From contig JACQRC010000015.1 of assembly GCA_016206665.1 (NCBI GenBank), forward strand, positions 118 through 64,117: DNA of 64,000 bases, read 5' to 3'. The stretch is from Candidatus Omnitrophota bacterium. GTDB taxonomy: Bacteria; Omnitrophota; Gorgyraeia; Aquiviventales; JACQRC01. Positions 45,767-59,176 of this stretch are shown in pieces. A model generated the notes under the pieces. That model was not told the DNA's origin, did not search any database, and worked only from the letters and a program-made list of their open reading frames with translations. Each line of letters begins with the position of its first letter. Position 1 is the first letter of the stretch. A program made the translations under genes and the position numbers.

Positions 45767-46959
45767 GGATTCTCTTTGTCCGCAATCTGTTTCAACCGGA
45801 CGAGCTGGGAGGCAACCGGTATCCGGTGGAGGTCTGCGCCCGGCTGGCGGCGCGGGGTCATGCGGTCACCGTGGTCAGCAGCCGGACCACGGCCACGGTC
45901 GAGGCCGCGCTGCCTTCGGTGCGCCGCATCGGCTATCCGGTCGTTCGTTGGCATCCGGTGACGACGCACGTCAGCAACATCTGGTCGGCGAGGCGCTGTG
46001 TGGCGCGCCTGCTGCGCCAGGAATCCTTCGATGTGGTGCTGGTTAGCTCCTATGACGCTGCCGTGGGCACTCTGGCCTTGCGCGGCCTCAGGGACCTGCC
46101 GACCATCTTCATCTATCACAGCAGCCTCTATCATCCATGGCTGCACGCGACAGGCACCAACGGCCATCCCTGGTGGCTGGACCTGCCTGGCATCCGCCCC
46201 GCCGCCCAGGCGTACGTGGAGGGCGTGGAGCGGTTCGCCTTCGGCCGGGTGCGGCGCATTGTCGCGGTGAGCCGATTTTCCGAACGGGAGATTGCTGCGG
46301 TCGCACCATCGGCCCAGCCGCGGACCCTCGTGATTCCGACCGGGGTGGACACGCGCATCTTTGCGCCAGCCGCGGACCGATCCGCCGCTAAGACCGCGCT
46401 GGGGCTCGCTTCGGAGCGGCCGTTGGTCATCGGCGTCGGGCGGCTGACCGCGGTAAAGCGGTTCGACCGCTGGTTGCGGGCGATGGCGGCGGTGCACACC
46501 GCGCCATCCTGGCAGGGGGCGATCATCGGCGGCGGGCCGGCCGACACAGGCCTGCGGCAGCTGGCAGAGGAACTGGGGCTCTCCTCGCGGATCATCTTCA
46601 CGGGGTATGCACCGAGCACGACGGTGGCGGCCTGGATGCGCGCGGCCGATTTGGAGCTCTGCTCCAGCCAATTCGAAAATCAGAGTCTCGCCATCCTCGA
46701 GGCGCTCTCCTGCGGCACGCCGGTGGCCGGGCCACCGGTGGGCGGCGTGCCGGAGGCCATTACGCGGGTCGATCCCGCGCTGGTCGCCGGGCAAGACAGC
46801 GTCGAAGCCTTGACCGCGTGTGTGCGGGCATATCTGCGGCGCACACCCGAGGAGCAGCATGCCGTACGCGAGCGGTGCCGGGAACTGGCCGTTTCGACGC
46901 ATGACTGGGAACGCGTCGTGGATCAGTTAGAGCAGGTGTTGCAGGGAGTGGTGGGGTGA
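45763..46959 (+). CDS. GT4 family glycosyltransferase
   Basis: ATGA overlap. The N-terminus is MRILFVRNLFQPDELGGN, and the C-terminal SQFENQSLAILEALSCGTPV is of the E(x7)E type. Confidence 0.8.
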   Translation: MRILFVRNLFQPDELGGNRYPVEVCARLAARGHAVTVVSSRTTATVEAALPSVRRIGYPVVRWHPVTTHVSNIWSARRCVARLLRQESFDVVLVSSYDAAVGTLALRGLRDLPTIFIYHSSLYHPWLHATGTNGHPWWLDLPGIRPAAQAYVEGVERFAFGRVRRIVAVSRFSEREIAAVAPSAQPRTLVIPTGVDTRIFAPAADRSAAKTALGLASERPLVIGVGRLTAVKRFDRWLRAMAAVHTAPSWQGAIIGGGPADTGLRQLAEELGLSSRIIFTGYAPSTTVAAWMRAADLELCSSQFENQSLAILEALSCGTPVAGPPVGGVPEAITRVDPALVAGQDSVEALTACVRAYLRRTPEEQHAVRERCRELAVSTHDWERVVDQLEQVLQGVVG

Positions 46960-48107
46960 AGCCGTTGCGCCTGCTGCTGATCACCAACAGCCTCGAGGTC
47001 GGCGGCGTGGAAACGAATCTCGTCGCGCTGGCCCACGGATTTCGACGGCGTGGCCATGCCGTGACCGTCGCGGCTGCACCTGGCCCGCTGCGGGCAGCGC
47101 TGCCAAGCGAGATCCGCTACGCCGCGGTGCCCGCCGATGGCGGTCTACCGTGGATCTGGTGGCGGGCCGCGGCCGGGGTCGCGCGGGTATTGCGGGAAGC
47201 GGAGATCGGCGTCATCCACGCCTTCTCACCGCGCGCCACGTTGATCGCCGATCTGGCCCGGTGGCAACTGGGTGGTTTGAACGGGCATCGCGTGATCCGA
47301 CCGCTGCTCGTGAGCGTGCCGGGCGGGCTGCAGGAGTCGCCGGCGGAGAGCGCCGTCGTAACCTACGGCCGGCTCTGGCCGCTGTGGGGGGCGGACCGCA
47401 TTCTCGCGATCTCGCAGGAGATCCGAAAGACGGTGAACCGGCTGCCCGGCCTGGCTGCGCGCGTCACGTCGCTGTGCCACATCGGGCTGGACCTCAGCAA
47501 GTTTCAGGCGGTCGCCCCGGAGACGGCAGTGCGGCTGCGGCAGACGTGGGGATGGGATGCCGCGACCCCCATCATCGGCACCATCGGTGCCCTGGCCGAA
47601 CGCAAGAGCCATGACCTGTTTCTGCGCACCGCCAGTCTGGTGCACCGCCGGCATCCGGAGGCACGATTCGTGATCGTCGGAGAGGGGCCGCTGCGTCAGC
47701 GATTGACGGCGCTGGCCCAGGAGCTCGGGCTGGGGGAGGCGGTGCGGTTTCTCGGGTTGCGGCACGACATCCCTGAGATTCTGGCGGCGCTCGATCTGTA
47801 CATCAAGCCTGGCATCGTCGAAGGTTTTGTCGGGATCACCGTGCTGGAGGCGATGGCGATGGCCAAACCGGTCATCGCTTTTGAGACGGAGGATGTCAAA
47901 GCGGCGATTCGTGACGGCCAGACAGGGTTGCTGGTGCCGTGCGGGGATGTGGCGGCGCTGGCCGAAGCCACCATCTCGCTGGTGGAGCAACCGATGCTGC
48001 GCCAGCGATACGGGCAGGCGGGGCACCGCCTCGTCGAAGCAGAATTTGAAGTTTCGCGGGTCACGGAACGCTTGGAGCAATTTTACGCGGAGGCGCTGGG
48101 TGCTTAA
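46956..48107 (+). CDS. GT4 family glycosyltransferase
   Basis: GTG 46956 sits in a GTGA overlap. Motifs are LLLITNSLEVGGVE and GIVEGFVGITVLEAMAMAKPVI. Confidence 0.85.
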   Translation: MKPLRLLLITNSLEVGGVETNLVALAHGFRRRGHAVTVAAAPGPLRAALPSEIRYAAVPADGGLPWIWWRAAAGVARVLREAEIGVIHAFSPRATLIADLARWQLGGLNGHRVIRPLLVSVPGGLQESPAESAVVTYGRLWPLWGADRILAISQEIRKTVNRLPGLAARVTSLCHIGLDLSKFQAVAPETAVRLRQTWGWDAATPIIGTIGALAERKSHDLFLRTASLVHRRHPEARFVIVGEGPLRQRLTALAQELGLGEAVRFLGLRHDIPEILAALDLYIKPGIVEGFVGITVLEAMAMAKPVIAFETEDVKAAIRDGQTGLLVPCGDVAALAEATISLVEQPMLRQRYGQAGHRLVEAEFEVSRVTERLEQFYAEALGA

Positions 48108-49164
48108 GGTCGCCATCATCGGCTGCGGCTATTGGGGACAGAACCTGATCCGCAACTGCCAGGATACGGACGGGGTGTCGGTGGTGGCGTGCGTCGACGC
48201 TCGGCCGGACCGGCTGGCCTACATCCGTCAGCGATTTCCCCACGTCGGGCTCTACGATGACTGGTCCCGCCTCGTGCAAGCCGAGGCCTCGGGAGGGCTC
48301 CAGGTCGACGCGGTCGTCGTCGCCACCCCGCCCTCGAGCCATGCGGCGCTGGCGAAGGCGGCGCTGGAACTGGGCAAACATGTGCTCGTTGAAAAGCCCT
48401 TCACGCTCCGCTCCGAAGAGGCCGCGGCGCTGGTGGCGCTGGCGAAGGCGCGCGGGGTGCGGTTGATGGTGGATTTCACCTTTGTCTACGCGGGGGCCGT
48501 GCGGCGCATCAAGGAGCTGATCGACGACGGTGAGTTGGGGGAGCTGTACTACTTCGACTCCAGCCGGATCAACCTGGGGCTGCTCCAGCCGGACACGAAC
48601 GTCGTGTGGGACCTGGTGGCGCATGATGTCTCGATGCTGTTGTATCTGACCGGCCAACATCCCATCGCCGTCTCGGCACACGGCGGCTCCTTCATCCGCG
48701 AGGGTATCCCGGAGATCGCCTACGTCAACCTCACCTTCCCACAGGGGCTGATGGCGCACATCGCCGTGAGCTGGCTCTCGCCGGTCAAGGTGCGCCAGAC
48801 GCTCATCGGCGGCAGTAAGAAGATGGTCTTGTACGATGACATCGAAAACATCGAAAAGGTGCGCGTCTACGACAAGGGCGTCCTGCTGAATGCCTCGGAG
48901 CCGCAGGGGCTGTTAGAGCGCCAGCTCACCTATCGTACGGGCGACGTCTGGGTGCCGAAGCTCGACACGACCGAGCCGCTCAAGGCGATGTGTGCGCATT
49001 TCCGGGACAGCATCGACGATCCACGGCGGGTGCTGCTGACCGATGGGCAGTTCGGATGGGAAGTGGTGCGGATCCTGGAGCGGGTCGAGGCCTCGATGCA
49101 GCGGCGCGGCCAGGAGCTGCGCATCGAAACCCCGGCCGCTCAGCCGAAGGAGTTGACGGCGTGA
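48100..49164 (+). CDS. Gfo/Idh/MocA-family NAD-dependent sugar oxidoreductase (WbpB-like)
   Basis: GTG 48100 has an 8-nt overlap. Motifs are KVAIIGCGYWGQN and HVLVEKP. Confidence 0.85.
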   Translation: MLKVAIIGCGYWGQNLIRNCQDTDGVSVVACVDARPDRLAYIRQRFPHVGLYDDWSRLVQAEASGGLQVDAVVVATPPSSHAALAKAALELGKHVLVEKPFTLRSEEAAALVALAKARGVRLMVDFTFVYAGAVRRIKELIDDGELGELYYFDSSRINLGLLQPDTNVVWDLVAHDVSMLLYLTGQHPIAVSAHGGSFIREGIPEIAYVNLTFPQGLMAHIAVSWLSPVKVRQTLIGGSKKMVLYDDIENIEKVRVYDKGVLLNASEPQGLLERQLTYRTGDVWVPKLDTTEPLKAMCAHFRDSIDDPRRVLLTDGQFGWEVVRILERVEASMQRRGQELRIETPAAQPKELTA

Positions 49165-49255
49165 CCCCACCACCTGGCGCGCCCCGCCGTCCCTGCGGGG
49201 CGTCGGCCGTACGCCCGACAGGCCCTACGGGCCGTGCGGCAGGTGGTGGGGTGAC
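49161..49255 (+). repeat. 95-bp palindromic intergenic repeat, copy 1 (REP/MITE-like)
   Basis: GTGAC direct repeats lie at 49161-49165 and 49251-49255. A perfect 13-bp terminal inverted repeat pairs ACCCCACCACCTG (49164-49176) with CAGGTGGTGGGGT (49240-49252). An internal perfect 8-bp stem pairs CGCCCCGC (49180-49187) with GCGGGGCG (49195-49202). A second copy lies at 58007-58101. Confidence 0.85.
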
Positions 49256-49931
49256 GCGGCAGGACGCGCAGATTTTTCCGAAGGTGACGCTGGGCCGTCC
49301 GGCCGAGGTGGCCGGCCCCTGCATTCTGGGCCAGCCGCCCCGCGGCCGCCGCGCCGGCGAACTACCGTTGGTGATCGGGCCACACGCCACGATCCGCGCC
49401 TTCACCGTCATCTACGCGGGCACGACGATCGGTGCGCATCTCTCCACCGGCCACGGGGCGTTGATTCGCGAGGACAACCGCCTGGGGGACGATGTCAGCG
49501 TCGGCACGCATGCGGTGCTGGAGCATGGCAACCGGATCGGCAGCCACGTGCGCATCCACTCCGGCAGCTTCCTGGAACTGGTGATCCTCGATGACCACGT
49601 CTTCATCGGGCCGGGCGTCGTCTTCACCGATGACCCGCACCCGATGTGCCCGCGCTACGAGGAGTGCGTGCGCGGGGCGACGGTGCGCGCGTGGGCCAAG
49701 ATCGGGGGGAACGCGACGATCCTGCCCGGGGTGGTCATCGGTGCCCATGCCTTGGTGGGGGCGGGTTCGGTGGTGACGGAAGATGTGCCGGAGGCAGCGG
49801 TGGTGGCGGGTAATCCGGCCCGCATCATTAAGCGGGTGGAAGAGCTGCGCTGCATCAAAGGCTATTTTGAGCGGGTGTACGAGTGGGAAACCGCGAAAAC
49901 ACCGCGTCTGGCGCGGCCGGCGGCACGGTAA
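49251..49931 (+). CDS. Left-handed beta-helix (hexapeptide-repeat) acetyltransferase (WbpD-like)
   Basis: Hexapeptide repeats include IGPHATIRAFTVIYAGTTIGAHLSTGHGALIREDNRLGDDVSVGTHAVLEHGNRIGSHVRIHSGS. The start is probably GTG 49251 at the right end of the repeat. GTG 49161 is also in frame and would add 30 repeat-encoded codons. Confidence 0.75.
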   Translation: MTRQDAQIFPKVTLGRPAEVAGPCILGQPPRGRRAGELPLVIGPHATIRAFTVIYAGTTIGAHLSTGHGALIREDNRLGDDVSVGTHAVLEHGNRIGSHVRIHSGSFLELVILDDHVFIGPGVVFTDDPHPMCPRYEECVRGATVRAWAKIGGNATILPGVVIGAHALVGAGSVVTEDVPEAAVVAGNPARIIKRVEELRCIKGYFERVYEWETAKTPRLARPAAR

Positions 49932-49941
49932 CCAGACGACC

Positions 49942-51846
49942 ATGTGCGGCATCTGCGGGGTGTGGCATTGGACGGAGGAACCGGTGACGGAGCAGCTGCT
50001 GCAACGGATGGCGGCTCAGCTGCGCCACCGCGGCCCCGACGATGAAGGGACCGCGCGCCCCGCGCCAGGCGTGGGCCTGGGCCACACGCGGCTGAGCATC
50101 ATCGACTTGAGCGCCGCCGGCCATCAGCCGATGGCCAACGCCGCCAAGACGGCGTGGATCGTCTACAACGGCGAGATCTACAATTACCGCACGCTGCGGG
50201 ACGAACTGCAGCGAGCCGGCGCCGTCTTCGTCAGTCAATCGGATACCGAAGTGATTCTCCACGCCTACGAGCGGTGGGGACTGGACTGTCTCGAGCATCT
50301 CGACGGGATGTTCGCCTTCGGCCTGTGGGATGCCCGCCAGCAACAGCTCTTCTGCGCCCGCGACCGCACCGGCAAGAAGCCGCTCTTCTATTATGAGGGG
50401 CCGTCGGTGTGGGCCTTCGCCTCGGAGATCAAGGCGCTGCTGGTTCATCCGGGCATCCCGGACGAGATTAACCTCGAGGCCCTGCCGGCATACCTCGCCC
50501 ACGGGTATGTCCCATCGCCTGACACCTTCTATCGCGGGATCCGGCAGCTGCCGCCAGGGTGCCGCCTCGTCCTGAGCCGCCAGCGGCGGACGGCCGAGGT
50601 CACACCGTACTGGGAGGTGCACCGCCGCGTCCGACGGACGGAGCCATCCGCGGCCGAGGCCCGCACCGAAGTGCGCCGCCTCGTGACGGAGGCGGTGCGC
50701 AAACGGCTCATCGCCGACGTACCGTTAGGGGCGTTCTTGAGCGGCGGGCTCGATTCGACGATCGTCGTCGGCGTGATGAGCCAATTGATGGACCAGCCCG
50801 TGCGCACCTTCAGCATTGGCTTCTCCGGCGATGCGCGCTTTGACGAGACCCGGTACGCCCGGATCGCCGCGCGGCGGTTTGGGACCCGGCACACCGAGTT
50901 CATCGTCGAGCCGCAGGCCTTCGAGCTGCTGGATACCCTGGTCTACCATCACGACCAGCCCTTCGGCGACTCCTCGGCGATTCCCGCCTTTTTGCTGTCG
51001 CGGCTGACACGGCAGCAGGTGACGGTGGCCCTCAATGGTGACGGGGGGGATGAGCTGTTCGCCGGCTATCTGCGGTTCGCGGTCTGCGTCCGGGCCGAAC
51101 GCTGGCCGCTGTGGATGCGGCGCCGGATGCACCACCTCGCTCAGCGGCTGGCCGGCTGGTCCGGTCGTCACCACGCGCTGGCGAGCGCTGCGCGTCTGTG
51201 CGAGGCGGCCCGGCTGCCCCCGGCGGAACGGCTCTTCCGGCTGACCGCGTACTTCCCTCAGCCGGAAGAGGTGCTGCACCCCGAGTTGGCCGGCCTCGTG
51301 CGGGACGATCGGCTCATGGGAAATTTTCGCGAGATCTTTCAGGCGTCGCCCAACGGCACGCTGCTCTCCAAGCTCTTGTACGTGAATCTGCGTGAATATC
51401 TCGCCGGCGACTTGCATGTGAAGATGGACCGGTGTAGCATGGCCCATGGGCTGGAGACGCGCTCGCCCCTGCTCGACACGGCGCTCATCGAATATGCACT
51501 GGGATTGCCGGACGCCATGAAGTTGCGTGGCTGGCGGACCAAAGTGATCCTGCGGGACGCCTTCGCGGATTTGTTGCCGCCGGAGATTCAGCATCGTGGG
51601 AAATGGGGATTCGGCGTGCCGCTCGGGGCGTGGTTTCGGACTTCGCTGCGCGCGCGGCTTCAGGAACTCCTGCTCGATCCCCAGGCGCAGTGGTTGGCCT
51701 ACCTACGGCGTGAAGCCGTGCAACAGTTGGTGGACGAACATCTCCTGGGAGCGCGCGATCACAGTCAGCGGTTGTGGTCGTTGTTGACGCTGGAAACGTG
51801 GCTGCGGTTGCGCAAGGCAGGCGCCTTGCTGGTCAGCCATGCGTGA
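49942..51846 (+). CDS. Asparagine synthase (glutamine-hydrolysing)-family amidotransferase, copy 2
   Basis: ATG 49942. Motifs are MCGICG, HRGPDD, YNGEIYN and AFLSGGLDS. Confidence 0.9.
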   Translation: MCGICGVWHWTEEPVTEQLLQRMAAQLRHRGPDDEGTARPAPGVGLGHTRLSIIDLSAAGHQPMANAAKTAWIVYNGEIYNYRTLRDELQRAGAVFVSQSDTEVILHAYERWGLDCLEHLDGMFAFGLWDARQQQLFCARDRTGKKPLFYYEGPSVWAFASEIKALLVHPGIPDEINLEALPAYLAHGYVPSPDTFYRGIRQLPPGCRLVLSRQRRTAEVTPYWEVHRRVRRTEPSAAEARTEVRRLVTEAVRKRLIADVPLGAFLSGGLDSTIVVGVMSQLMDQPVRTFSIGFSGDARFDETRYARIAARRFGTRHTEFIVEPQAFELLDTLVYHHDQPFGDSSAIPAFLLSRLTRQQVTVALNGDGGDELFAGYLRFAVCVRAERWPLWMRRRMHHLAQRLAGWSGRHHALASAARLCEAARLPPAERLFRLTAYFPQPEEVLHPELAGLVRDDRLMGNFREIFQASPNGTLLSKLLYVNLREYLAGDLHVKMDRCSMAHGLETRSPLLDTALIEYALGLPDAMKLRGWRTKVILRDAFADLLPPEIQHRGKWGFGVPLGAWFRTSLRARLQELLLDPQAQWLAYLRREAVQQLVDEHLLGARDHSQRLWSLLTLETWLRLRKAGALLVSHA

Positions 51847-53041
51847 GGCGCGTCCCATCCGCATCCTGCGCATCATCGCGCGGCTCAACATCGGGGGGCC
51901 GGCCCGCCAGGCGCTGCTGTTGAGCGAGACGCTGAATGGCGGGTCATTCGCCTCGCGATTGGTCTACGGCCGACCGGCGCCGGATGAGGGGGATTGGTCG
52001 GACCGGCTCAACGCGTCGGCCTCCCGCATCCGTCTGAACCGTTTCGGGCGGGAGCTCCATCCGATCAATGACGTGGCCACCCTGTGGCAGCTCTGCCGGG
52101 TCGTGGCCGAGTTCCGGCCGGACATCATTCACACGCACACGGCGAAGGCCGGCGCGCTCGGCCGGCTGGCGGGAGGACTCATGAACGCCCGCTGGCGCTG
52201 GTCGCATGACCGGCACCGGGCAGTACTCGTCCACACCTTTCACGGTCACGTCCTCGCGGGCTATTTTCCTCAGGTGATGACCCGGCTCTTTCTCGGGATC
52301 GAGCGCGCCCTGGCCCGACGGACCGACCGCATCATCGCCGTCAGCCCCTCGGTGCGGGAAGAGTTGCTGCGTCTGGGCATCGGGGATGCCGAGCGCGTCA
52401 CCGTGGTGCGCCTGGGCCTGCCGCTGGATGATTTGCTCGCGGTAGAGCCGCCGCCCGCCCCTGCGCGGCCGTGCCGGGTGGGCATCATCGGCCGGCTCGT
52501 GCCGATCAAACGCCACGAGCTCTTCCTGCAGATGGCGCAGCGCTGCCGCATGGAGGCCCCGGGGACCGACTGGCGGTTTGCCGTCGTGGGCGATGGCGAG
52601 CGGCGGTCCGAGCTGGAGGGCCTCGCCCAACGGCTGGGCTTGCACGGTACGTTGACCTTCACCGGCTGGCAGTCCGATTTGCCGGCGGTCTACCGCGGGC
52701 TCGATGTCGTCTGTCTCACCTCAGCCAATGAGGGGACCCCGGTCTCCCTCATTGAGGCGCTCGCCGCGCACCGCGCGGTGGTGGCGACCGAGGTCGGCGG
52801 GGTGCGCGACATCGTCGGGCCGACGGTCACCAGACAGGAAGGCATCCAGATCGCCGAGCGGGGGCTGCTCATCGGTCACGGCGACAGCGCCGCGCTCTCC
52901 CGCGCCGTGCAGATGCTGGCCGCGCAGGACGAGCTACGGCTCCGGCTGGGCCGGGCCGGCCGACAATTTGTGCAGCACCACTACAGTGCGGAGCAACTCA
53001 TCCATCATCTGACACAACTCTACGAGGAACTGGTGCCATGA
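51839..53041 (+). CDS. GT4 family glycosyltransferase
   Basis: Motifs are IRILRIIARLNIGGPA and SANEGTPVSLIEALAAHRAVVATEVGG. Confidence 0.8.
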   Translation: MREARPIRILRIIARLNIGGPARQALLLSETLNGGSFASRLVYGRPAPDEGDWSDRLNASASRIRLNRFGRELHPINDVATLWQLCRVVAEFRPDIIHTHTAKAGALGRLAGGLMNARWRWSHDRHRAVLVHTFHGHVLAGYFPQVMTRLFLGIERALARRTDRIIAVSPSVREELLRLGIGDAERVTVVRLGLPLDDLLAVEPPPAPARPCRVGIIGRLVPIKRHELFLQMAQRCRMEAPGTDWRFAVVGDGERRSELEGLAQRLGLHGTLTFTGWQSDLPAVYRGLDVVCLTSANEGTPVSLIEALAAHRAVVATEVGGVRDIVGPTVTRQEGIQIAERGLLIGHGDSAALSRAVQMLAAQDELRLRLGRAGRQFVQHHYSAEQLIHHLTQLYEELVP

Positions 53042-54018
53042 AAACACTCATCACAGGCGGGGCAGGCTTCATCGGGTCGCATCTGTCGGAGCTGCTGCTC
53101 CAGCAGGGCCATGAGGTGACGGCCCTGGATAACTTGTCCACAGGCCGGTACGAAAACATCGCTCATCTGGACGGTCACGCCGGATTCCAGTTTGTCAACG
53201 GCTCCATCCTGGAGGCGTCCCTCGTCGACAAACTCGTCGAGCGCGCGCAGGTGGTCTTTCATTTGGCGGCTGCCGTGGGTGTGGAGCTGATCATCAAGCG
53301 GCCGCTGGAGTCGCTCACCACCAACATCAAGGGCAGCGAGATCGTCCTCGACATGGCGCACCGCTACCGGCGCAAGGTGCTGGTGGCGTCCACCTCGGAG
53401 ATCTACGGCAAGAACACCAACGGCCCCTTGAAGGAGGACGAAGACCGCATCCTGGGCTCGCCGCTTAAGAGCCGGTGGAGCTACTCGACCGCCAAGGCCA
53501 TTGATGAGATCCTGGCCTACATCTATTATAAGGAGAAGGGGGTGCCCACGGTCATCGTGCGGCTGTTCAACACCGTCGGCCCGCGCCAGACGGGCGCGTA
53601 TGGGATGGTCATTCCGCGGTTCGTGGGGCAGGCGATCGCGGGCAAGCCCCTGTCGGTCTACGGTGACGGCAAGCAAACGCGCTGCTTCCTGCACGTGAAG
53701 GACGTGGTGGCTGCGCTGGCGAAATTAGCGGAGCATGCCGGGGCGGTGGGGGAGGCGTTCAATCTGGGCAGTCAGGAAGAAGTGGCCATCAATGAGCTGG
53801 CCCAGCGCATCATCGAGTTGGCCGGCAGCAATTCCCAGGTCGTCCATGTGCCGTACGACGAGGCCTACGAAGAGGGGTTTGAGGACATGCAGCGCCGGGT
53901 GCCGGATACCACCAAGTTGCAGCGGCTGATCGGATTCAAGCCGACGCGGAAACTGGACGATATCATCCGGGACGTGATCGAGACCATGCGCCGCGCGCCG
54001 CAAGGAGTCCAACGGTAA
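53038..54018 (+). CDS. NAD-dependent sugar epimerase/dehydratase (UDP-glucuronate decarboxylase / 4-epimerase-like extended SDR)
   Basis: ATGA overlap. Motifs are MKTLITGGAGFIGSHL, STSEIYG and YSTAK (YxxxK). Confidence 0.85.
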   Translation: MKTLITGGAGFIGSHLSELLLQQGHEVTALDNLSTGRYENIAHLDGHAGFQFVNGSILEASLVDKLVERAQVVFHLAAAVGVELIIKRPLESLTTNIKGSEIVLDMAHRYRRKVLVASTSEIYGKNTNGPLKEDEDRILGSPLKSRWSYSTAKAIDEILAYIYYKEKGVPTVIVRLFNTVGPRQTGAYGMVIPRFVGQAIAGKPLSVYGDGKQTRCFLHVKDVVAALAKLAEHAGAVGEAFNLGSQEEVAINELAQRIIELAGSNSQVVHVPYDEAYEEGFEDMQRRVPDTTKLQRLIGFKPTRKLDDIIRDVIETMRRAPQGVQR

Positions 54019-55808
54019 TGCTCCAGCGTGCCCTGGGCGCCGCAACACTCGCCGCGCTCATCAGCACAGCGATGCTTCCTTTCATCCGGCGCGTGGCCCT
54101 GCGTTGGGGGTGGGTGGCCAAGCCCCGCCACGAACGGTGGCACCGTCGGGTGGTGACCCAGTTCGGCGGAGTGGCCATCTGGGCCGGCTTCATCGTGGCT
54201 GCGGTGGCGCTCGGGCCGCGCACGCCAAAATTCTGGGCCGTGTTGGGCGGAGGGACGGCCCTGTTTGTGTTAGGGCTGTTGGATGATTTTATCCGGATCA
54301 AGCCCTATTCCAAGGTCCTGGGCCAGGTAATCGTGGCCTGTGGATTGCTGCTCGCCGGCATCCGCGTCGAGATCATCCCGTGGGAGTGGGTCGCGGTGCT
54401 GGTCACGATCGTGTGGTTTGTGCTGTTGACCAACGCCATCAATCTGCTCGATAACATGGACGGCCTCGCGGCCGGTGTCGTGGCGATTGCCGCCTGCTTT
54501 CTGGCGATTCACGGCTGGTGGGGCGGGTCCGCCCCCGTCCTCGTGCTCTCGACGGCCCTGGCCGGCGCGTCCATCGGGTTTCTTCGTTATAACTTTCCCC
54601 CTGCGCGCAGTTTCATGGGTGATGCCGGCAGCCAGTTCCTGGGCGGGACGCTGGCAGCCGTCGCGTTGATGGGCACCTGGAAGCACACCACCCAGCTGGT
54701 GAGCGTCCTGGCGATTCCCGTGCTGATTCTCTCGGTGCCCATTTTTGACACCGTGTTTGTGACGGTCCTGCGGCTCATGAACAAGCGCCGGCCCTTTCAA
54801 GGGGGCACCGACCACATCTCGCACCGGCTGGCCATCATGGGGCTGACGGAGCGGCAGGTGGTGCTGAGCCTGTATGGCGTGAGCCTCGGCTTCGGATTGT
54901 TGAGCATCTACTGTGCAGCGTGCCGGCCGGTCACGATGTGGGTGATCCTGCCGTTGTCACTCATCGGGCTGCTCATCTGCGGCGCCTATCTGGCGAAGGT
55001 CAAGGTCTATCAATTGGAACGGCTCACGACGGACCGCCAGGCCCAAACCTCGAGGGGCCAGGTCGTCATCGAGACCACGCTGTGGTACAAGCGTCGGATC
55101 GTTGAAGTCGTGACGGACGTGGTGCTGATCGGTGTGGCCTTTGTGGGAGCGCATCTGCTGCGGTTCGAGGGGATGCTCTCCTACGACCTGCAGCGCTTGA
55201 TCGTGCAGGCGCTGCCGGTGTTGGTGGTCCTGAAGATTACCATGTTCTATCTATGCGGCCTCTATCGGGGACTATGGCGGTACGCGAGCCTCACCGATGT
55301 CATCGCCATCTTCAAGGCGGTCAGTTTGGGCTCCGTCGCATCGGCCGTGGCCCTCGTCCTGCTGTGGCGGTTCATCGGCTACTCCCGGGCCGTGCTCATC
55401 ATCGACTGGCTGCTGCTCTTCTTAGGGGTCTGCGGGACCCGTGTGGCGGAGCGGCTGCTCGACGAGCTCATTACCTCGGCCACGGTCAGCCAACGGCAGG
55501 TGGTCATCTTCGGCGCCGGCGATGCGGGGGAGCTGGCCTTGCGCAAGTTGAAGCAGCACCGCCTGCTGCGGCCGAAGGTCGTGGGTTTTGTGGATGAGGA
55601 TCTGCTCAAGGTGGGCCAGTCCATCCATGGGGTGCCGATCATGGGTACCCGCGAGCAACTGACAGAGCTGGCGCAGGTCAGCCGCATCGACGAATTGATC
55701 GTGGCCGTGCCCGGACTGTCACGCCAGGCGCTGGGCGAGATCACCGAACAGTGCCGCCTGCTCGGCATCCGGCTGCGGAGCCTCAGCGACGTGCTGGTGG
55801 ATGAGTAG
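54018..55808 (+). CDS. WecA/MraY-family polyprenyl-phosphate HexNAc-1-phosphate transferase fused to a CapD/WbpM-N-terminal-like TM + Rossmann-like module
   Basis: TAATG junction. N-terminal motifs are NAINLLDNMDGLAAG, FMGDAGSQFLG and PIFDTVFV. The C-terminal part has 4 hydrophobic helices, YRGLWRYASLTD and QVVIFGAGDAGELALRKL...VVGFVDED...IHGVPIMG...IDELIVAVP. Confidence 0.8.
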   Translation: MLQRALGAATLAALISTAMLPFIRRVALRWGWVAKPRHERWHRRVVTQFGGVAIWAGFIVAAVALGPRTPKFWAVLGGGTALFVLGLLDDFIRIKPYSKVLGQVIVACGLLLAGIRVEIIPWEWVAVLVTIVWFVLLTNAINLLDNMDGLAAGVVAIAACFLAIHGWWGGSAPVLVLSTALAGASIGFLRYNFPPARSFMGDAGSQFLGGTLAAVALMGTWKHTTQLVSVLAIPVLILSVPIFDTVFVTVLRLMNKRRPFQGGTDHISHRLAIMGLTERQVVLSLYGVSLGFGLLSIYCAACRPVTMWVILPLSLIGLLICGAYLAKVKVYQLERLTTDRQAQTSRGQVVIETTLWYKRRIVEVVTDVVLIGVAFVGAHLLRFEGMLSYDLQRLIVQALPVLVVLKITMFYLCGLYRGLWRYASLTDVIAIFKAVSLGSVASAVALVLLWRFIGYSRAVLIIDWLLLFLGVCGTRVAERLLDELITSATVSQRQVVIFGAGDAGELALRKLKQHRLLRPKVVGFVDEDLLKVGQSIHGVPIMGTREQLTELAQVSRIDELIVAVPGLSRQALGEITEQCRLLGIRLRSLSDVLVDE

Positions 55809-57006
55809 CCGCTTCCTGCGCGGCGGGCTCTACGTCCTCGCCGTCTGCCTCCCATTTTCCATTGCCCTCGTGGAGGTGAGCTTCGGCGTGATGCTCTTCG
55901 CCTGGGCGGGACGCCTGTGGGAACGCCGGCGGAGCCGGGCGGCCTGCTGGACGCTGCCGGCGCAACTCACGTGGCCGCTGGCCGCCTACGTGGTAGCGTG
56001 CCTGCTCTCAGTGGCGTGGAGCACGGATTGGCGTTTGAGCCTGACCGGGTTGATCGGCAAAACCCTCGAGTACCTGGGGTTTCTCGTGATCGTCGCCGAC
56101 GTGGCGCGTGACCGCGCCGTGGTCCGCAGGGCGGTGATGCTCTTCGGCATCTCGGCGGTCCTGGTCTGCCTGGATGGGTGGCTGCAGGAGTGGACAGGGT
56201 CGGATCTGCTCCGGCACACCATGGCCCGCACCGGCTACGGGCGCATGACCGGGCCGTACCGGAGCCCCAACGATCTGGCGACGTACTTGATGGTCACGCT
56301 CCTGCTGGCGTGGGCAGCCTGGTCGCAACCGGGGCGGGCCGGGCGGTGGTGGCGCCTCGGCGGTCTGCTCCTGCTCTTCATCACCTTTGTGCGGACCGAC
56401 TCGCAGGGGGCCTGGCTGGGCGTGGGAGCCGGCGGGCTGCTCCTCGTGCGGCGCCTCAAACGCGCGTGGCAGCCGCTCGTGGTCGGCCTGCTGCTGCTTC
56501 TGGCCGGCGCCGTGGTGGTGTGGCGGCATCATGGCCTGCCGTCGTACGCGCAGGCGATCGGTCACGGTCCCGAGGATCGGTGGTTCATGTGGCAGGCAGG
56601 GCTCGGCATGGTGCGGGACCATCCGTGGACCGGGGTGGGGCTCAACACCTTCATGGCCAACTACCTGCAGTATTGGGTGGGCGGGGAGCAGATGCCGCGT
56701 TATGCGCACAACTGTTATCTGCAGACGGCCGCGGAAGTCGGCATCCCGGGTCTGCTCGCTTTTCTGTGGCTACTGGCGGCACTCCTCGTGACGTGGTGGC
56801 GCCGTCTGGGCGATCTGGCGCCTGAGGCGGACCGTGCCCTCCTCGTCGGTCTCTCGGCAGCTGCGCTGGCTTTTCTTGTCCAGTCGGCCGTGGACACGAA
56901 TTTTTACGCCCTCCGGCAGGTTGTCCTGTTCTGGGTCGTGGCCGGACTGGCGACGGGCCTGGCCCAGTCCGCCGCCGCCCGTCCCGCCGCCATCGGTTCC
57001 TCCTGA
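55801..57006 (+). CDS. O-antigen ligase / Wzy_C-family polytopic membrane protein
   Basis: It is polytopic. The loop with RTDSQGAWLG and the later AHNCYLQTAAEVGIPGLLAF (HN..L...E.G motif) are typical of WaaL/Wzy_C proteins. Confidence 0.7.
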   Translation: MSSRFLRGGLYVLAVCLPFSIALVEVSFGVMLFAWAGRLWERRRSRAACWTLPAQLTWPLAAYVVACLLSVAWSTDWRLSLTGLIGKTLEYLGFLVIVADVARDRAVVRRAVMLFGISAVLVCLDGWLQEWTGSDLLRHTMARTGYGRMTGPYRSPNDLATYLMVTLLLAWAAWSQPGRAGRWWRLGGLLLLFITFVRTDSQGAWLGVGAGGLLLVRRLKRAWQPLVVGLLLLLAGAVVVWRHHGLPSYAQAIGHGPEDRWFMWQAGLGMVRDHPWTGVGLNTFMANYLQYWVGGEQMPRYAHNCYLQTAAEVGIPGLLAFLWLLAALLVTWWRRLGDLAPEADRALLVGLSAAALAFLVQSAVDTNFYALRQVVLFWVVAGLATGLAQSAAARPAAIGSS

Positions 57007-58010
57007 TGGATGCGCCGCCACAGGCGCTGGATCCCCGCGCCGTTGTGTGGATTCGTCTCGACCGATTCGGGGAGGTGTTGTTGAACCTGCCGGCGGTCGG
57101 GGTCCTGCGCCGCGCCTATCCCGCCGCCCGCATCACCCTGCTCGTCCAGCCGTATCTCAGCGAATTAGTGGCCGGCTCTCCGGACGTGAACGAGGTCCTC
57201 AGCTACGCGCCGTCATCCGGTGATGCCTGGTGGCGTGAAGCGTGGCGTGTCGCGCGGTTGCTGCGACCGCACCGGTTCGATGTGGCGGTCGTGGCGCATC
57301 CCAAGAAATCGCTGCACCTCGCCGCCGCGTTGGCCGGGATTCCGCGGCGGCTGGGCTATGATCGGAAGTGGGGCTGGCTCCTGACGCATCGTCTTGCGGA
57401 TGACAAGGTGGCACGGCGCCGGCATGAGGTGGATGCCAACGTCCATCTGCTGGAACGGCTGGGGATTGTCGCTGAACCGGTCCCGCTGTCGCTCCCGGTC
57501 GCTGCGAAGACGGCCATCCGCGTCGCCGCCCTGCTCAGACAGGAGGGAATCCACGATGGCGATTGCATAGTGGGCCTGCACCCGTGGACGTCCCATCCGC
57601 GCAAGCAGTGGCCGGTCGAGCGCTTCAGGCAATGTCTCGAACGGCTCGCCACGACCACGCCGGCGGTGCCGGTTATCCTCGGCGGCGTCGAGGAGGCCGA
57701 AGCCGCCCGACGGCTCTGCGCAGGGCTCGGCTCGCGGCCGGTGTCGCTGGCCGGCCGCGTGAATCTTCTGGAACTGGCGGCGCTATTGCAGCGGTGCCGG
57801 GTGTTGCTCACCAATGACAGCGGCCCCATGCATCTGGCTGCCGCGGTGGGCACACCGGTCGTCGCGCTCTTCGGCGGCAGCGACCCTGCCGCCTCGCCGG
57901 AGCGGTGGGCTCCGCGGGGTGACGGCCATACCGTGTTGCGCGCCGAGGAGCTCTCCGCGATTTCGGTGGAGCAGGTCGTGCAGGCCGTCCAGCGTTACCT
58001 GGCGTCATGA
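57006..58010 (+). CDS. GT9 family glycosyltransferase (heptosyltransferase-like), copy 1
   Basis: TGATG junction. Motifs are IRLDRFGEVLLNLPAVGVLRRAYP and the GT9 signature LLTNDSGPMHLAAAVGTPVVALFG. Confidence 0.8.
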   Translation: MDAPPQALDPRAVVWIRLDRFGEVLLNLPAVGVLRRAYPAARITLLVQPYLSELVAGSPDVNEVLSYAPSSGDAWWREAWRVARLLRPHRFDVAVVAHPKKSLHLAAALAGIPRRLGYDRKWGWLLTHRLADDKVARRRHEVDANVHLLERLGIVAEPVPLSLPVAAKTAIRVAALLRQEGIHDGDCIVGLHPWTSHPRKQWPVERFRQCLERLATTTPAVPVILGGVEEAEAARRLCAGLGSRPVSLAGRVNLLELAALLQRCRVLLTNDSGPMHLAAAVGTPVVALFGGSDPAASPERWAPRGDGHTVLRAEELSAISVEQVVQAVQRYLAS

Positions 58011-58101
58011 CCCCACCACCTGCCGCATGGCCCGTAGGGCCGGGCCCGCCGATGGCGGGCCGCCCGCCGTTCCGGCGGGGCGCGTCAGGTGGTGGGGTGA
58101 C
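58007..58101 (-). repeat. 95-bp palindromic intergenic repeat, copy 2 (inverted relative to copy 1)
   Basis: ATGAC (58007-58011) and GTGAC (58097-58101) flank the TIR ACCCCACCACCTG (58010-58022) / CAGGTGGTGGGGT (58086-58098). The reverse complement aligns by hand to copy 1 at both ends (about 27/29 and 31/35 identities). The central part is divergent but still self-complementary. Confidence 0.85.
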
Positions 58102-59176
58102 CCCCCAGCGCGTGCTGATCGTGAACCCCTTTGGCATCGGAGATGTCCTCTTCACGACACCGGTGATTCGCGCGCTGCGGCAGGCCTGGCCGCAGGCCTA
58201 TCTAGCCTTTCTCGGCAACCGCCGCACCGAACCGCTGCTACGGCACAATCCGCACGTCAACGAGGTCGTGGTGTTTGAGAAGGACGAGTTTCGCCAATGT
58301 TGGCGTCACGAGTCGCCGTGGGCGTGCCTGCGTCGGCTCTGGGCATGGGTGCGCGAGTTGCGGGCCAAGCGGTTTGAGCTGGCGCTGGATTTCTCCTTCA
58401 ACAGCCGCGTCGGCTTTCTGCTGTGGCTGATGGGCATTCCCCGGCGCGTGGGCTTCGATTACCGTCGGCGCGGGCTGTTCCTCACGGAGCGTGTCCCCTT
58501 GGCCGGTTTCGACGACAAGCCCGTGGTGGATTACTACTTTGACTTGCTCGCCGAATTGGGCATTACGGCCGCTGACCGTCACCTGGAGGTGGTCGTGCCA
58601 CCAGAACTCCAGCGGTGGGCGCAAAAGCGCCTGCGAGAGATGGGCATCCGTGCTGGGGAGGCCTTGGTCGGGCTCATCCCCGGTGGTGGGGCGAGCTGGG
58701 GTACCTCCGCTTCGCTTCGTCGTTGGCATGCGGAGGGTTTCGCGGCCGTGGCACAGCGGCTCAAGCGCCGGCCTGGCATGCAGCTCCTCCTCTTTGGCGA
58801 TCACGCGGACCGTGAGTTGTGCCCACCCATCGTGAGCCTCGTTCCCGACATCCATGATCTATGCGACCAGCTCAGTTTAATGGAGTTTGTGGCCTTGTTG
58901 GCTCAGTGCCGGGTCGTAGTGTGCAACGACGGTGGTCCCTTACACTTGGCGGTAGCGGTCGGCACCCGCACGGTGTCCGTCTTTGGACCGGTGAGCGAGC
59001 AGGTCTACGGTCCGTACGCGCCCGACGGCGCTCATCGGGTCATCAGCTACGACCCGGGCTGCCGCCCTTGCTACCAACGATTCCATCTGCCGCCGTGCCC
59101 CATCGACCGCGAGTGCCTGCGGCGGATCACGGCCGACGACGTGGCCCGGGCCGCGGAGGAGCTACTCGCGGCATGA
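58097..59176 (+). CDS. GT9 family glycosyltransferase (heptosyltransferase-like), copy 2
   Basis: Motifs are RVLIVNPFGIGDVLFTTPVIRAL and VVCNDGGPLHLAVAVGTRTVSVFGP. The start is probably GTG 58097 at the right end of the repeat. ATG 58007 is in frame and would add 30 repeat-encoded codons. Confidence 0.8.
   Translation: MTPQRVLIVNPFGIGDVLFTTPVIRALRQAWPQAYLAFLGNRRTEPLLRHNPHVNEVVVFEKDEFRQCWRHESPWACLRRLWAWVRELRAKRFELALDFSFNSRVGFLLWLMGIPRRVGFDYRRRGLFLTERVPLAGFDDKPVVDYYFDLLAELGITAADRHLEVVVPPELQRWAQKRLREMGIRAGEALVGLIPGGGASWGTSASLRRWHAEGFAAVAQRLKRRPGMQLLLFGDHADRELCPPIVSLVPDIHDLCDQLSLMEFVALLAQCRVVVCNDGGPLHLAVAVGTRTVSVFGPVSEQVYGPYAPDGAHRVISYDPGCRPCYQRFHLPPCPIDRECLRRITADDVARAAEELLAA

Follow-up and report, generated by a model that had tools for sequence, protein, structure and literature searches.

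How does a strongly folding, GC-rich palindrome come to lie across the stop and start codons of adjoining genes in a tightly packed operon, and how is it tolerated there? This question is raised by two copies of an 87-bp element in contig JACQRC010000015.1 of a Candidatus Omnitrophota bacterium (assembly GCA_016206665.1), of which the 64,000 nucleotides from position 118 to 64,117 of the forward strand were analysed (hereafter, the window). The two copies probably belong to a large, non-autonomous foldback family of the uncultured phylum Omnitrophota that resembles MITEs (miniature transposable elements with inverted repeats), generates a 3-bp target-site duplication (TSD), and is apparently kept only where its copies can be read by the ribosome.

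The window contains exactly four occurrences of the arm ACCCCACCACCTG or its complement, at 49164–49176 (+), 49240–49252 (−), 58010–58022 (+) and 58086–58098 (−). With up to two mismatches, eight matches are found against 2.19 expected, a number reached in none of 100 shuffles. The two 95-nt stretches that hold these arms, which an earlier note made from the letters alone had described as inverted copies of one palindromic repeat, show 80% mutual complementarity over their full length when aligned; they are therefore one element present in two copies of opposite internal orientation. Chance similarity and a contig artefact were rejected on the basis of the four exact 13-nt arms, the 80% identity over 95 nt and the existence of copies in independent assemblies. 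With hundreds of copies in such assemblies from several projects, the probability that the resemblance is fortuitous or limited to this contig is close to nil.

Both copies read (G/A)TGA-C-CCCACCACCTG...CAGGTGGTGGG-G-TGA. The arms of the 13-bp terminal inverted repeat reported earlier are indeed perfect, but their outermost A and T belong to a duplicated TGA target triplet, and the 95-bp length is accordingly refined to 87 bp for the element proper, or 90 bp inserted when one TGA is counted. In both copies, a closing stem of 13+3 bp encloses three GC-rich hairpins, and the fold can be formed on either strand, with energies of −70.2 and −75.5 kcal/mol on one strand and −68.2 and −74.0 kcal/mol on the other. 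The z-scores lie between −4.5 and −6.5, and none of 200 shuffles folds equally well. The very stable folding of both strands is thus borne out, as are the internal hairpins noticed earlier, copy 1 carrying CGCCCCGC-N7-GCGGGGCG. The features are as follows.

49165–49251, no strand assigned: element copy 1, 87 bp, 82% G+C
49165–49176 and 49178–49180, paired with 49236–49238 and 49240–49251: closing stem of copy 1
49181–49201, 49202–49219 and 49221–49233: the three hairpins of copy 1
58011–58097, no strand assigned: element copy 2, 87 bp, 83% G+C, internal orientation opposite to that of copy 1, same stem and three hairpins

The surrounding region is a long array of plus-strand genes rich in 4-nt overlaps, a glycan operon of an Omnitrophica metagenome-assembled genome (MAG). 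Each copy is placed on one of its junctions.

48100–49164, plus strand: Gfo/Idh/MocA-type oxidoreductase gene upstream of copy 1 (from its open reading frame, ORF), with its stop TGA at 49162–49164
49162–49164, plus strand: left TGA of copy 1, the TSD copy that serves as the upstream stop and, with G49161, forms the old GTGA overlap
49252–49254, plus strand: right TGA of copy 1; G49251 (the last base of the element), T49252 and G49253 make up a rebuilt GTG
49251–49931, plus strand: hexapeptide-repeat acetyltransferase gene downstream of copy 1
57006–58010, plus strand: glycosyltransferase family 9 gene upstream of copy 2, with its stop TGA at 58008–58010
58008–58010, plus strand: left TGA of copy 2, the upstream stop, which with A58007 forms the original ATGA overlap
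58098–58100, plus strand: right TGA of copy 2; G58097 and the following TG make up a rebuilt GTG, with AGGTG at 58087–58091, 5 nt upstream
58097–59176, plus strand: glycosyltransferase family 9, heptosyltransferase-like gene downstream of copy 2, its frame open from ATG 58007

The rebuilt GTG of copy 1 is likewise preceded, at a distance of 5 nt, by AGGTG (49241–49245). From the old start codons (GTG 49161 and ATG 58007), both 90-bp inserts are free of stops and run in frame into the downstream protein. For the acetyltransferase, this reading would add 30 element-encoded residues (VTPPPGAPRRPCGASAVRPTGPTGRAAGGG); the public gene call P0121 (226 aa) begins at the rebuilt GTG, and its orthologues start at the aligned position. 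For copy 2, the NCBI protein P0001 (389 aa) is identical to the reading from ATG 58007 and contains the 30 residues encoded by the element (MTPPPAAWPVGPGPPMAGRPPFRRGASGGG). In nine aligned homologues of P0001, among them P0002 (74% identity), the first residue falls on GTG 58097; for further listed homologues, the query coverage is only about 88–96%. As for the upstream genes, the oxidoreductase starts at GTG 48100, preceded by GGAGG, and opens with VLKVAIIGCG; its syntenic orthologue in locus L116 carries PF01408, and the syntenic orthologue of the gene upstream of copy 2 (L115, 1261–2265) carries PF01075.

The same junctions are empty in relatives. L115, the syntenic contig of the closest P0001 homologue, reads an element-free gtcATGAcgcc at the junction of copy 2, where the window has ATGA followed by 87 bp and TGA. 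In L116, L117 and L118, which hold the closest acetyltransferase homologues (77–78% identity), the junction of copy 1 is a plain 4-nt overlap (ATGA) with no element. None of the fetched loci is near-identical to the window. The empty junctions, together with the duplicated TGA, identify both window copies as insertions into stop/start overlaps. The earlier note held that an absence of further copies, with the 90 nt conserved as coding sequence at orthologous junctions, would speak against a repeat family; instead, copies are numerous and those junctions lack the 90 nt. The placement on stop/start overlaps, the rebuilt start, the reading frame through the element and the in-frame family members within genes described below are the most telling features and go beyond that note.

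One junction of the window without an element also deserves mention. At 46942–46959, a GTGA overlap (gene end at 46959, next start at 46956) is preceded by CAGG-GAG-TGGTGGG-G-TGA, which is the right arm of the element with a 3-nt insert, and the end of the upstream protein (...LQGVVG*) resembles the tail QVVG* of the mini-ORF found in other family members (see below). This stretch may be what is left of a lone arm that has become part of the gene, or a product of chance.

The family was searched for with the pattern CCCACCACCTG-N55-80-CAGGTGGTGGG, that is, exact 11-nt arms and a bounded spacer. The scan of genomes (species representatives) gave at least 114 loci and that of metagenomes at least 120, and a scan of viral contigs with the same pattern gave no match. 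All the family figures rest on the matches listed, and copies per genome, arm conservation and lengths are not unbiased estimates. The non-redundant elements number at least 242, with a well-formed inner stem in 200 of those listed. They have the form Y-CCCACCACCTG...CAGGTGGTGGG-R, and the elements listed measure 64–152 bp, their lengths peaking at 81 and 104. The genome loci (at least 114) are distributed as follows, according to the taxon labels of their depositors.

Omnitrophota/Omnitrophica: 62 loci in 15 MAGs
'Planctomycetia/-ales': 35 loci in 12 MAGs
'Uncultured bacterium': 5 loci
Otherwise labelled: 12 loci

The names of the MAGs suggest that those of the Omnitrophota group span 46–67% G+C. 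Most of the 12 otherwise labelled loci, and several matches outside Omnitrophota (Actinobacteria, delta-proteobacteria and Burkholderiales), fall within conserved coding sequence and lack an inner stem; these were counted as chance. The family has apparently not been described: in open-access full-text literature, searches for its arms, for repeats or palindromes of Omnitrophota, for MITEs at stop/start overlaps and for repeats linked to translational coupling found no description of it.

The flanks of the family members indicate how they arrived. Positions −4 to −2 are identical to positions +2 to +4 in 74–77% of the copies in the genome set and in 81–83% in the metagenome set, while complementarity of the central flanking base is limited to 7% and 5%, respectively. 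A central base that is identical and not complementary defines a 3-bp direct repeat, as opposed to a longer inverted one. Two other delimitations were tried and rejected: an inverted repeat extended through TSA, as the central base is the same on both sides, and a 5-bp TSD (RTSAY), as its outer positions match in only 36–45% of the copies and positions −1/+1 (Y on the left, R on the right) are complementary in about 90% (89–90%). Perfect 3-bp TSDs flank 137 of the 200 listed elements, with the following triplets.

TGA/TCA: 88
CCA/TGG: 21
TAA/TTA: 15
Other: 13

TNA triplets thus make up 103 of the 137. Five more pairs of filled and empty sites are found among the fetched loci, where nested and tandem insertions also occur. 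Judged from these sequences, the combination of TSDs, empty sites and nested or tandem copies is the signature expected of cut-and-paste or replicative insertion by a transposase making 3-bp staggered cuts, and we infer that a DDE-type transposase mobilizes the family.

Some target sites stand out. On the minus strand of L227 (300–1100), five elements are arranged in tandem at one junction, with ATGA between each and a further element nested in one of them; the last three mini-ORFs chain exactly (797->587, 588->468, 469->349) into a GspF/PilC-like gene, and the first two are broken. About 15 copies with a TAA/TTA duplication lie in TATAAT/ATTATA contexts (tataaT-CCC...GGG-Ataat) in low-G+C Omnitrophota MAGs (L002, L015, L028, L037, L044, L084 and L102), so placed that a −10-like hexamer is rebuilt on both sides of the element, with a putative role as promoter. 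The second commonest triplet, CCA/TGG (21/137), occurs several times in ATGG start contexts (L031 and L114 are examples), and its frequency hints at a target preference broader than TNA.

The interiors of the elements are very diverse, yet two or three perfect hairpins are retained, mostly with 3-nt loops, and these are GNA/TNC in 97 of 168. Four positions inside the 11-mer are paired in 71–86% of the copies, by three or four types of pairs each, and the fifth is paired in 12%. This drop at the fifth position sets the closing stem at 16 bp, with covariation, and the terminal inverted repeats consist of 12-bp ends (Y and the 11-mer) followed by the four covarying pairs.

A variant family of 143 nt (L067 460–602, L087 4853–4995 and L105 around 3990) has arms that both differ from the usual ones by changes that compensate each other (CCCATCACCTG/CAGGTGATGGG); immediately next to it is a canonical element that is itself nested. 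In L047 (1140–1175), a right arm on its own (AGCAGGTGGTGGG) fills the space from a TAA stop to an ATG start; it has no left arm in its vicinity and may be a deletion derivative that has retained the arm resembling a Shine–Dalgarno (SD) sequence.

Perfect GC-rich palindromes with short loops are also what would be expected of REP/REPIN-type elements, which a RAYT (IS200/IS605-like Y1) transposase moves in the form of hairpins of single-stranded DNA. GNA triloops are unusually stable in DNA, and the frequency of GNA/TNC loops, the symmetry of the pairing on the two strands and the occurrence of tandem clusters agree with this origin. However, the family has a clear 3-bp TSD that includes arbitrary triplets, while IS200/IS605-type and REP elements, to our knowledge, insert without target duplication, and no conserved GTAG-like tetranucleotide accompanies the palindromes. 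An origin of this kind is accordingly very improbable.

The second part of the answer concerns the reading frame. As gene context taken from the longest ORF is unreliable at 60–67% G+C, it was replaced by frame statistics and homology; the frame rules were worked out on the genome loci, held again in the independent metagenome set and were then computed on both sets combined. Among the TGA-type elements (n = 105), the codon ending in the left TG is ATG, GTG or TTG in 101, and the right codon is always ATG or GTG. From this right RTG, the ORF runs for a median of 176 codons, whereas the two other frames give 0 and 31. The elements have therefore entered start codons with an A after them, in very many cases where ATGA overlaps the preceding stop.

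At the same 105 junctions, the inserted length leaves a remainder of 2 on division by 3 in 67 (class 2), of 0 in 30 (class 0) and of 1 in 8. In class 2, the old start is in frame with the right TGA and opens a mini-ORF that reads M-I/T-P-P-P...Q-V-V-G-stop (MIPPP...QVVG*). It overlaps the upstream stop with its start codon and the new start with its stop codon, in an ATGA at both ends. This mini-ORF is intact in 65 of the 67 copies, AT-rich ones included: only 2 contain a stop as inserted, against 32 if the element is flipped (Fisher p = 8e-10), and the bias persists when sequence clusters are counted (2 against 24; n = 48). In the first 37 class-2 copies, the other two sense frames have stops in 23 each. 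In class 0, to which both window copies belong, the old and new starts share one frame, no separate mini-ORF is formed, and the frame is open in 28 of 30. Selection on the reading frame of the window copies would be an extrapolation from these family-wide counts.

The same constraint holds inside genes. Of 34 elements with a TSD other than TNA, 30 have an insert divisible by 3 (p = 5e-11), and intragenic copies appear as insertions of 28–35 residues rich in Pro, Gly and Arg. Alignment to solved homologues places a clean in-frame insertion in MutS between residues 108 and 109 of the E. coli protein, and others in Dxs between residues 480 and 487 and in UvrA; the Dxs orthologue in L074 is free of the insertion. 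A different arrangement is seen in L012 (4108–4223, minus strand), where a 116-nt element lies at the N-terminus of uvrA, its right-side triplet is ATC, which is not a start, and the sole in-frame ATG is inside the element; the start of this UvrA may lie within element sequence.

Insertions within essential genes, and identical triplets flanking a very stable structure in a manner formally like take-off and landing sites, could also be accounted for if the element were removed or skipped during expression, either by excision from the RNA or by ribosomal bypassing from one direct repeat to the other, of the kind known from T4 gene 60 and the mitochondrial 'byp' elements. Excision or bypass would lift any constraint on length and stops. 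The constraints observed (a multiple of 3 in 30/34 intragenic copies, and mini-ORFs free of stops in 65/67 junction copies when 32/67 would carry them if flipped) thus argue against such skipping, which can hardly be the explanation.

The sequences suggest how a MITE-like element of this form could be tolerated. Each window copy was inserted into the TGA of a 4-nt GTGA or ATGA overlap between co-translated genes. The left TGA retains the upstream stop, and the terminal purine of the element and the right TG rebuild a GTG, 5 nt past AGGUG. AGGUG is complementary to the CACCU of the canonical anti-SD sequence, and since GGAGG lies upstream of at least one gene here, it is a plausible weak SD. 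Buried in the 16-bp stem of a fold of about −70 kcal/mol, the stop, AGGUG and the new start should not be accessible, and free 30S subunits could therefore not use the new start. With the start inaccessible in the stem, the element would be harmless only if ribosomes translate through it.

A ribosome leaving the upstream gene would restart at the old overlapping start, read the M-T/I-P-P-P opening and melt the fold. In the window copies, the frame would either continue into the enzyme, giving it a 30-residue N-terminal extension, or translation would start at the rebuilt GTG after the stem has been opened. In class-2 copies, the ribosome would stop at the right TGA and reinitiate at the overlapping ATG, the mini-cistron relaying the translational coupling, and within genes only those copies would survive that add a multiple of 3 without a stop. 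This proposal agrees with models of translational coupling based on RNA unfolding and on reinitiation, which PMC12548453 reviews.

Alternatively, the element could be a structured RNA of the host, placed between cistrons as a terminator or attenuator, an RNase III site or a REP/BIME-like stabilizing hairpin, and selected for that function. A host RNA module would be in keeping with the high stability of the folds, the position of many copies exactly between co-transcribed genes, the covariation of the four pairs within the conserved arm, and the conservation of the arms over genomes of 46–67% G+C. It does not account for the copies in frame within mutS, dxs and uvrA, for the two orientations relative to transcription, both of which occur in the window as elsewhere, for the duplication of arbitrary triplets as TSDs, or for the closest relatives, which keep the operon and lack the element at the same junctions. 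No T run follows the stem at either window copy, and a covariance-model scan of 48900–58400 on both strands gave no Rfam match at E ≤ 1. Strand-specific selection on the RNA was also rejected: the sense strand folds more stably than the antisense in 27 cases and less stably in 33 (p = 0.44), arms and inner stems are nearly pure Watson–Crick (G:T 38 against A:C 37), and G–U pairs show no excess in the sense strand (47, against 74 in the antisense). A host RNA function is therefore unlikely.

Several points weigh against a MITE-like family kept by being ribosome-readable. On the side of mobility, about 38 of the 200 elements have no recognisable TSD. A search for a parent insertion sequence (IS) in 1.45 Mb of loci (arm pairs with up to 2 mismatches, 400–4000 bp apart, with a matching 3-bp repeat) found none, its candidates being separate short elements or chance. 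As no transposase with these ends was found, the case for mobilization by one is made by the TSDs and the empty sites. The search itself imposed exact arms and a spacer of 55–80 nt, and the conservation of the arms and the range of lengths are partly artefacts of this choice. The lack of asymmetry between sense and antisense means that the maintained pairing cannot be assigned to RNA over DNA; it may equally reflect a need of the transposition machinery or hairpin-templated repair. On the side of translation, the flip test is uninformative for class-0 junction copies (stops in 2/30 as inserted and 3/30 when flipped), and at the 82–83% G+C of the window copies an open frame is expected from composition. 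Reading through these two copies is suggested by the example of the family and by their geometry. Translation through the element and the relay of coupling would follow from sequence statistics.

With these reservations, the family is best placed among known elements by its defining features. The earlier note had offered REP/BIME-, Correia- and MITE-like elements as candidates. The MITE comparison holds, through the terminal inverted repeats, the 3-bp TSD, the dispersed copies and the empty junctions, and the REP/BIME and Correia comparisons fail on the TSD. Like MITEs, the elements are short, have no transposase gene, show foldback potential and a strong preference for TNA in their TSD, and occur in many dispersed copies with nested or tandem insertions and filled/empty polymorphism. 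Duplications of 3-bp TNA or TWA are known from IS5-family elements (IS1031/IS427 group) and from PIF/Harbinger-Tourist elements; however, the ends (Y)CCCACCACCTG are unlike the GG/GA-type ends of the IS5 family. The family differs from typical MITEs in having no parent IS in the loci searched, in interiors that are diverse but keep their hairpins, and in termini that rebuild both a stop and a start on insertion into (A/G)TGA.

REP, BIME and REPIN elements, as well as the Correia elements (NEMIS), share with the family GC-rich palindromes or inverted repeats between operon genes in both orientations. REP-type elements depend on RAYTs, and Correia elements are specific to Neisseria, with a TA duplication and 26-bp ends, in contrast to the 3-bp TSD, the different 12-bp ends and the Omnitrophota host found here. 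We know of no report of a REP/REPIN or Correia element that holds an open reading frame across its length.

In other respects, the behaviour of the family recalls elements that coexist with coding sequence. The Rickettsia palindromic elements (RPE; Ogata et al. 2000) are described in PMC10969869 as elements of about 100–150 bp found in frame within unrelated housekeeping genes. Both families are palindromes that add a peptide segment to the genes they enter, here MutS, Dxs, UvrA and others. They differ in phylum and sequence, and the present family has sharp 12-bp ends, a measurable 3-bp TSD and about half of its copies on start or stop codons; judged by phylum and G+C content, homology to RPE is unlikely.

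The mycobacterial MIRU elements (Supply et al. 1997), as presented in PMC3184786, are intercistronic, with small ORFs overlapping the flanking genes, direct repeats and empty sites in relatives. Overlapping small ORFs in operons, GC-rich internal inverted repeats and tandem arrays (here in L227) are common to both. However, MIRUs have 4-nt direct repeats and imperfect terminal repeats, and are known above all as tandem minisatellites of one genus, whereas the present family has perfect ends, a 3-bp TSD and mostly single copies, and is also inserted in coding sequence. Neisseria REP2 and the Borrelia IR repeats (PMC3184786) are also comparable. REP2 similarly supplies signals for translation initiation, but it contains a promoter and is not bounded by terminal inverted repeats, whereas here the element gives the start codon only its final purine, its other two bases being part of the duplicated target. 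Apart from the parent IS, the family is thus a MITE by its defining features, which combines RPE-like and MIRU-like behaviour.

Some consequences are practical. N-termini have already been mis-annotated by gene callers, as seen in the NCBI glycosyltransferase family 9 protein with its 30 element-encoded residues, and homology searches with Omnitrophota proteins will encounter spurious insertions rich in Pro and Gly. The elements offer natural material on which the coupling models of RNA unfolding and reinitiation can be tested, and they are possible markers for the population genomics of Omnitrophota.

A broader proposal, put forward tentatively and with the doubt that this implies, is that the ends have evolved as a 'translation-transparent' cassette, some copies perhaps having been co-opted by the host as translational gates dependent on coupling. 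The arms are free of stops in every frame. If the gate idea is true, an EF-P-sensitive pause of the ribosome at the obligatory M-(I/T)-P-P-P opening, which the left stem arm encodes, would keep the stem from closing and leave the downstream start accessible. If the cassette proposal is true, the stop-free arms, the rebuilt start, AGGUG and the bridging mini-cistron would let a selfish element colonize operon junctions and coding sequence, where compact genomes are densest, across the phylum. As the replicated statistics suggest, a small mobile element would thus persist in packed operons and essential genes by being readable by the ribosome.

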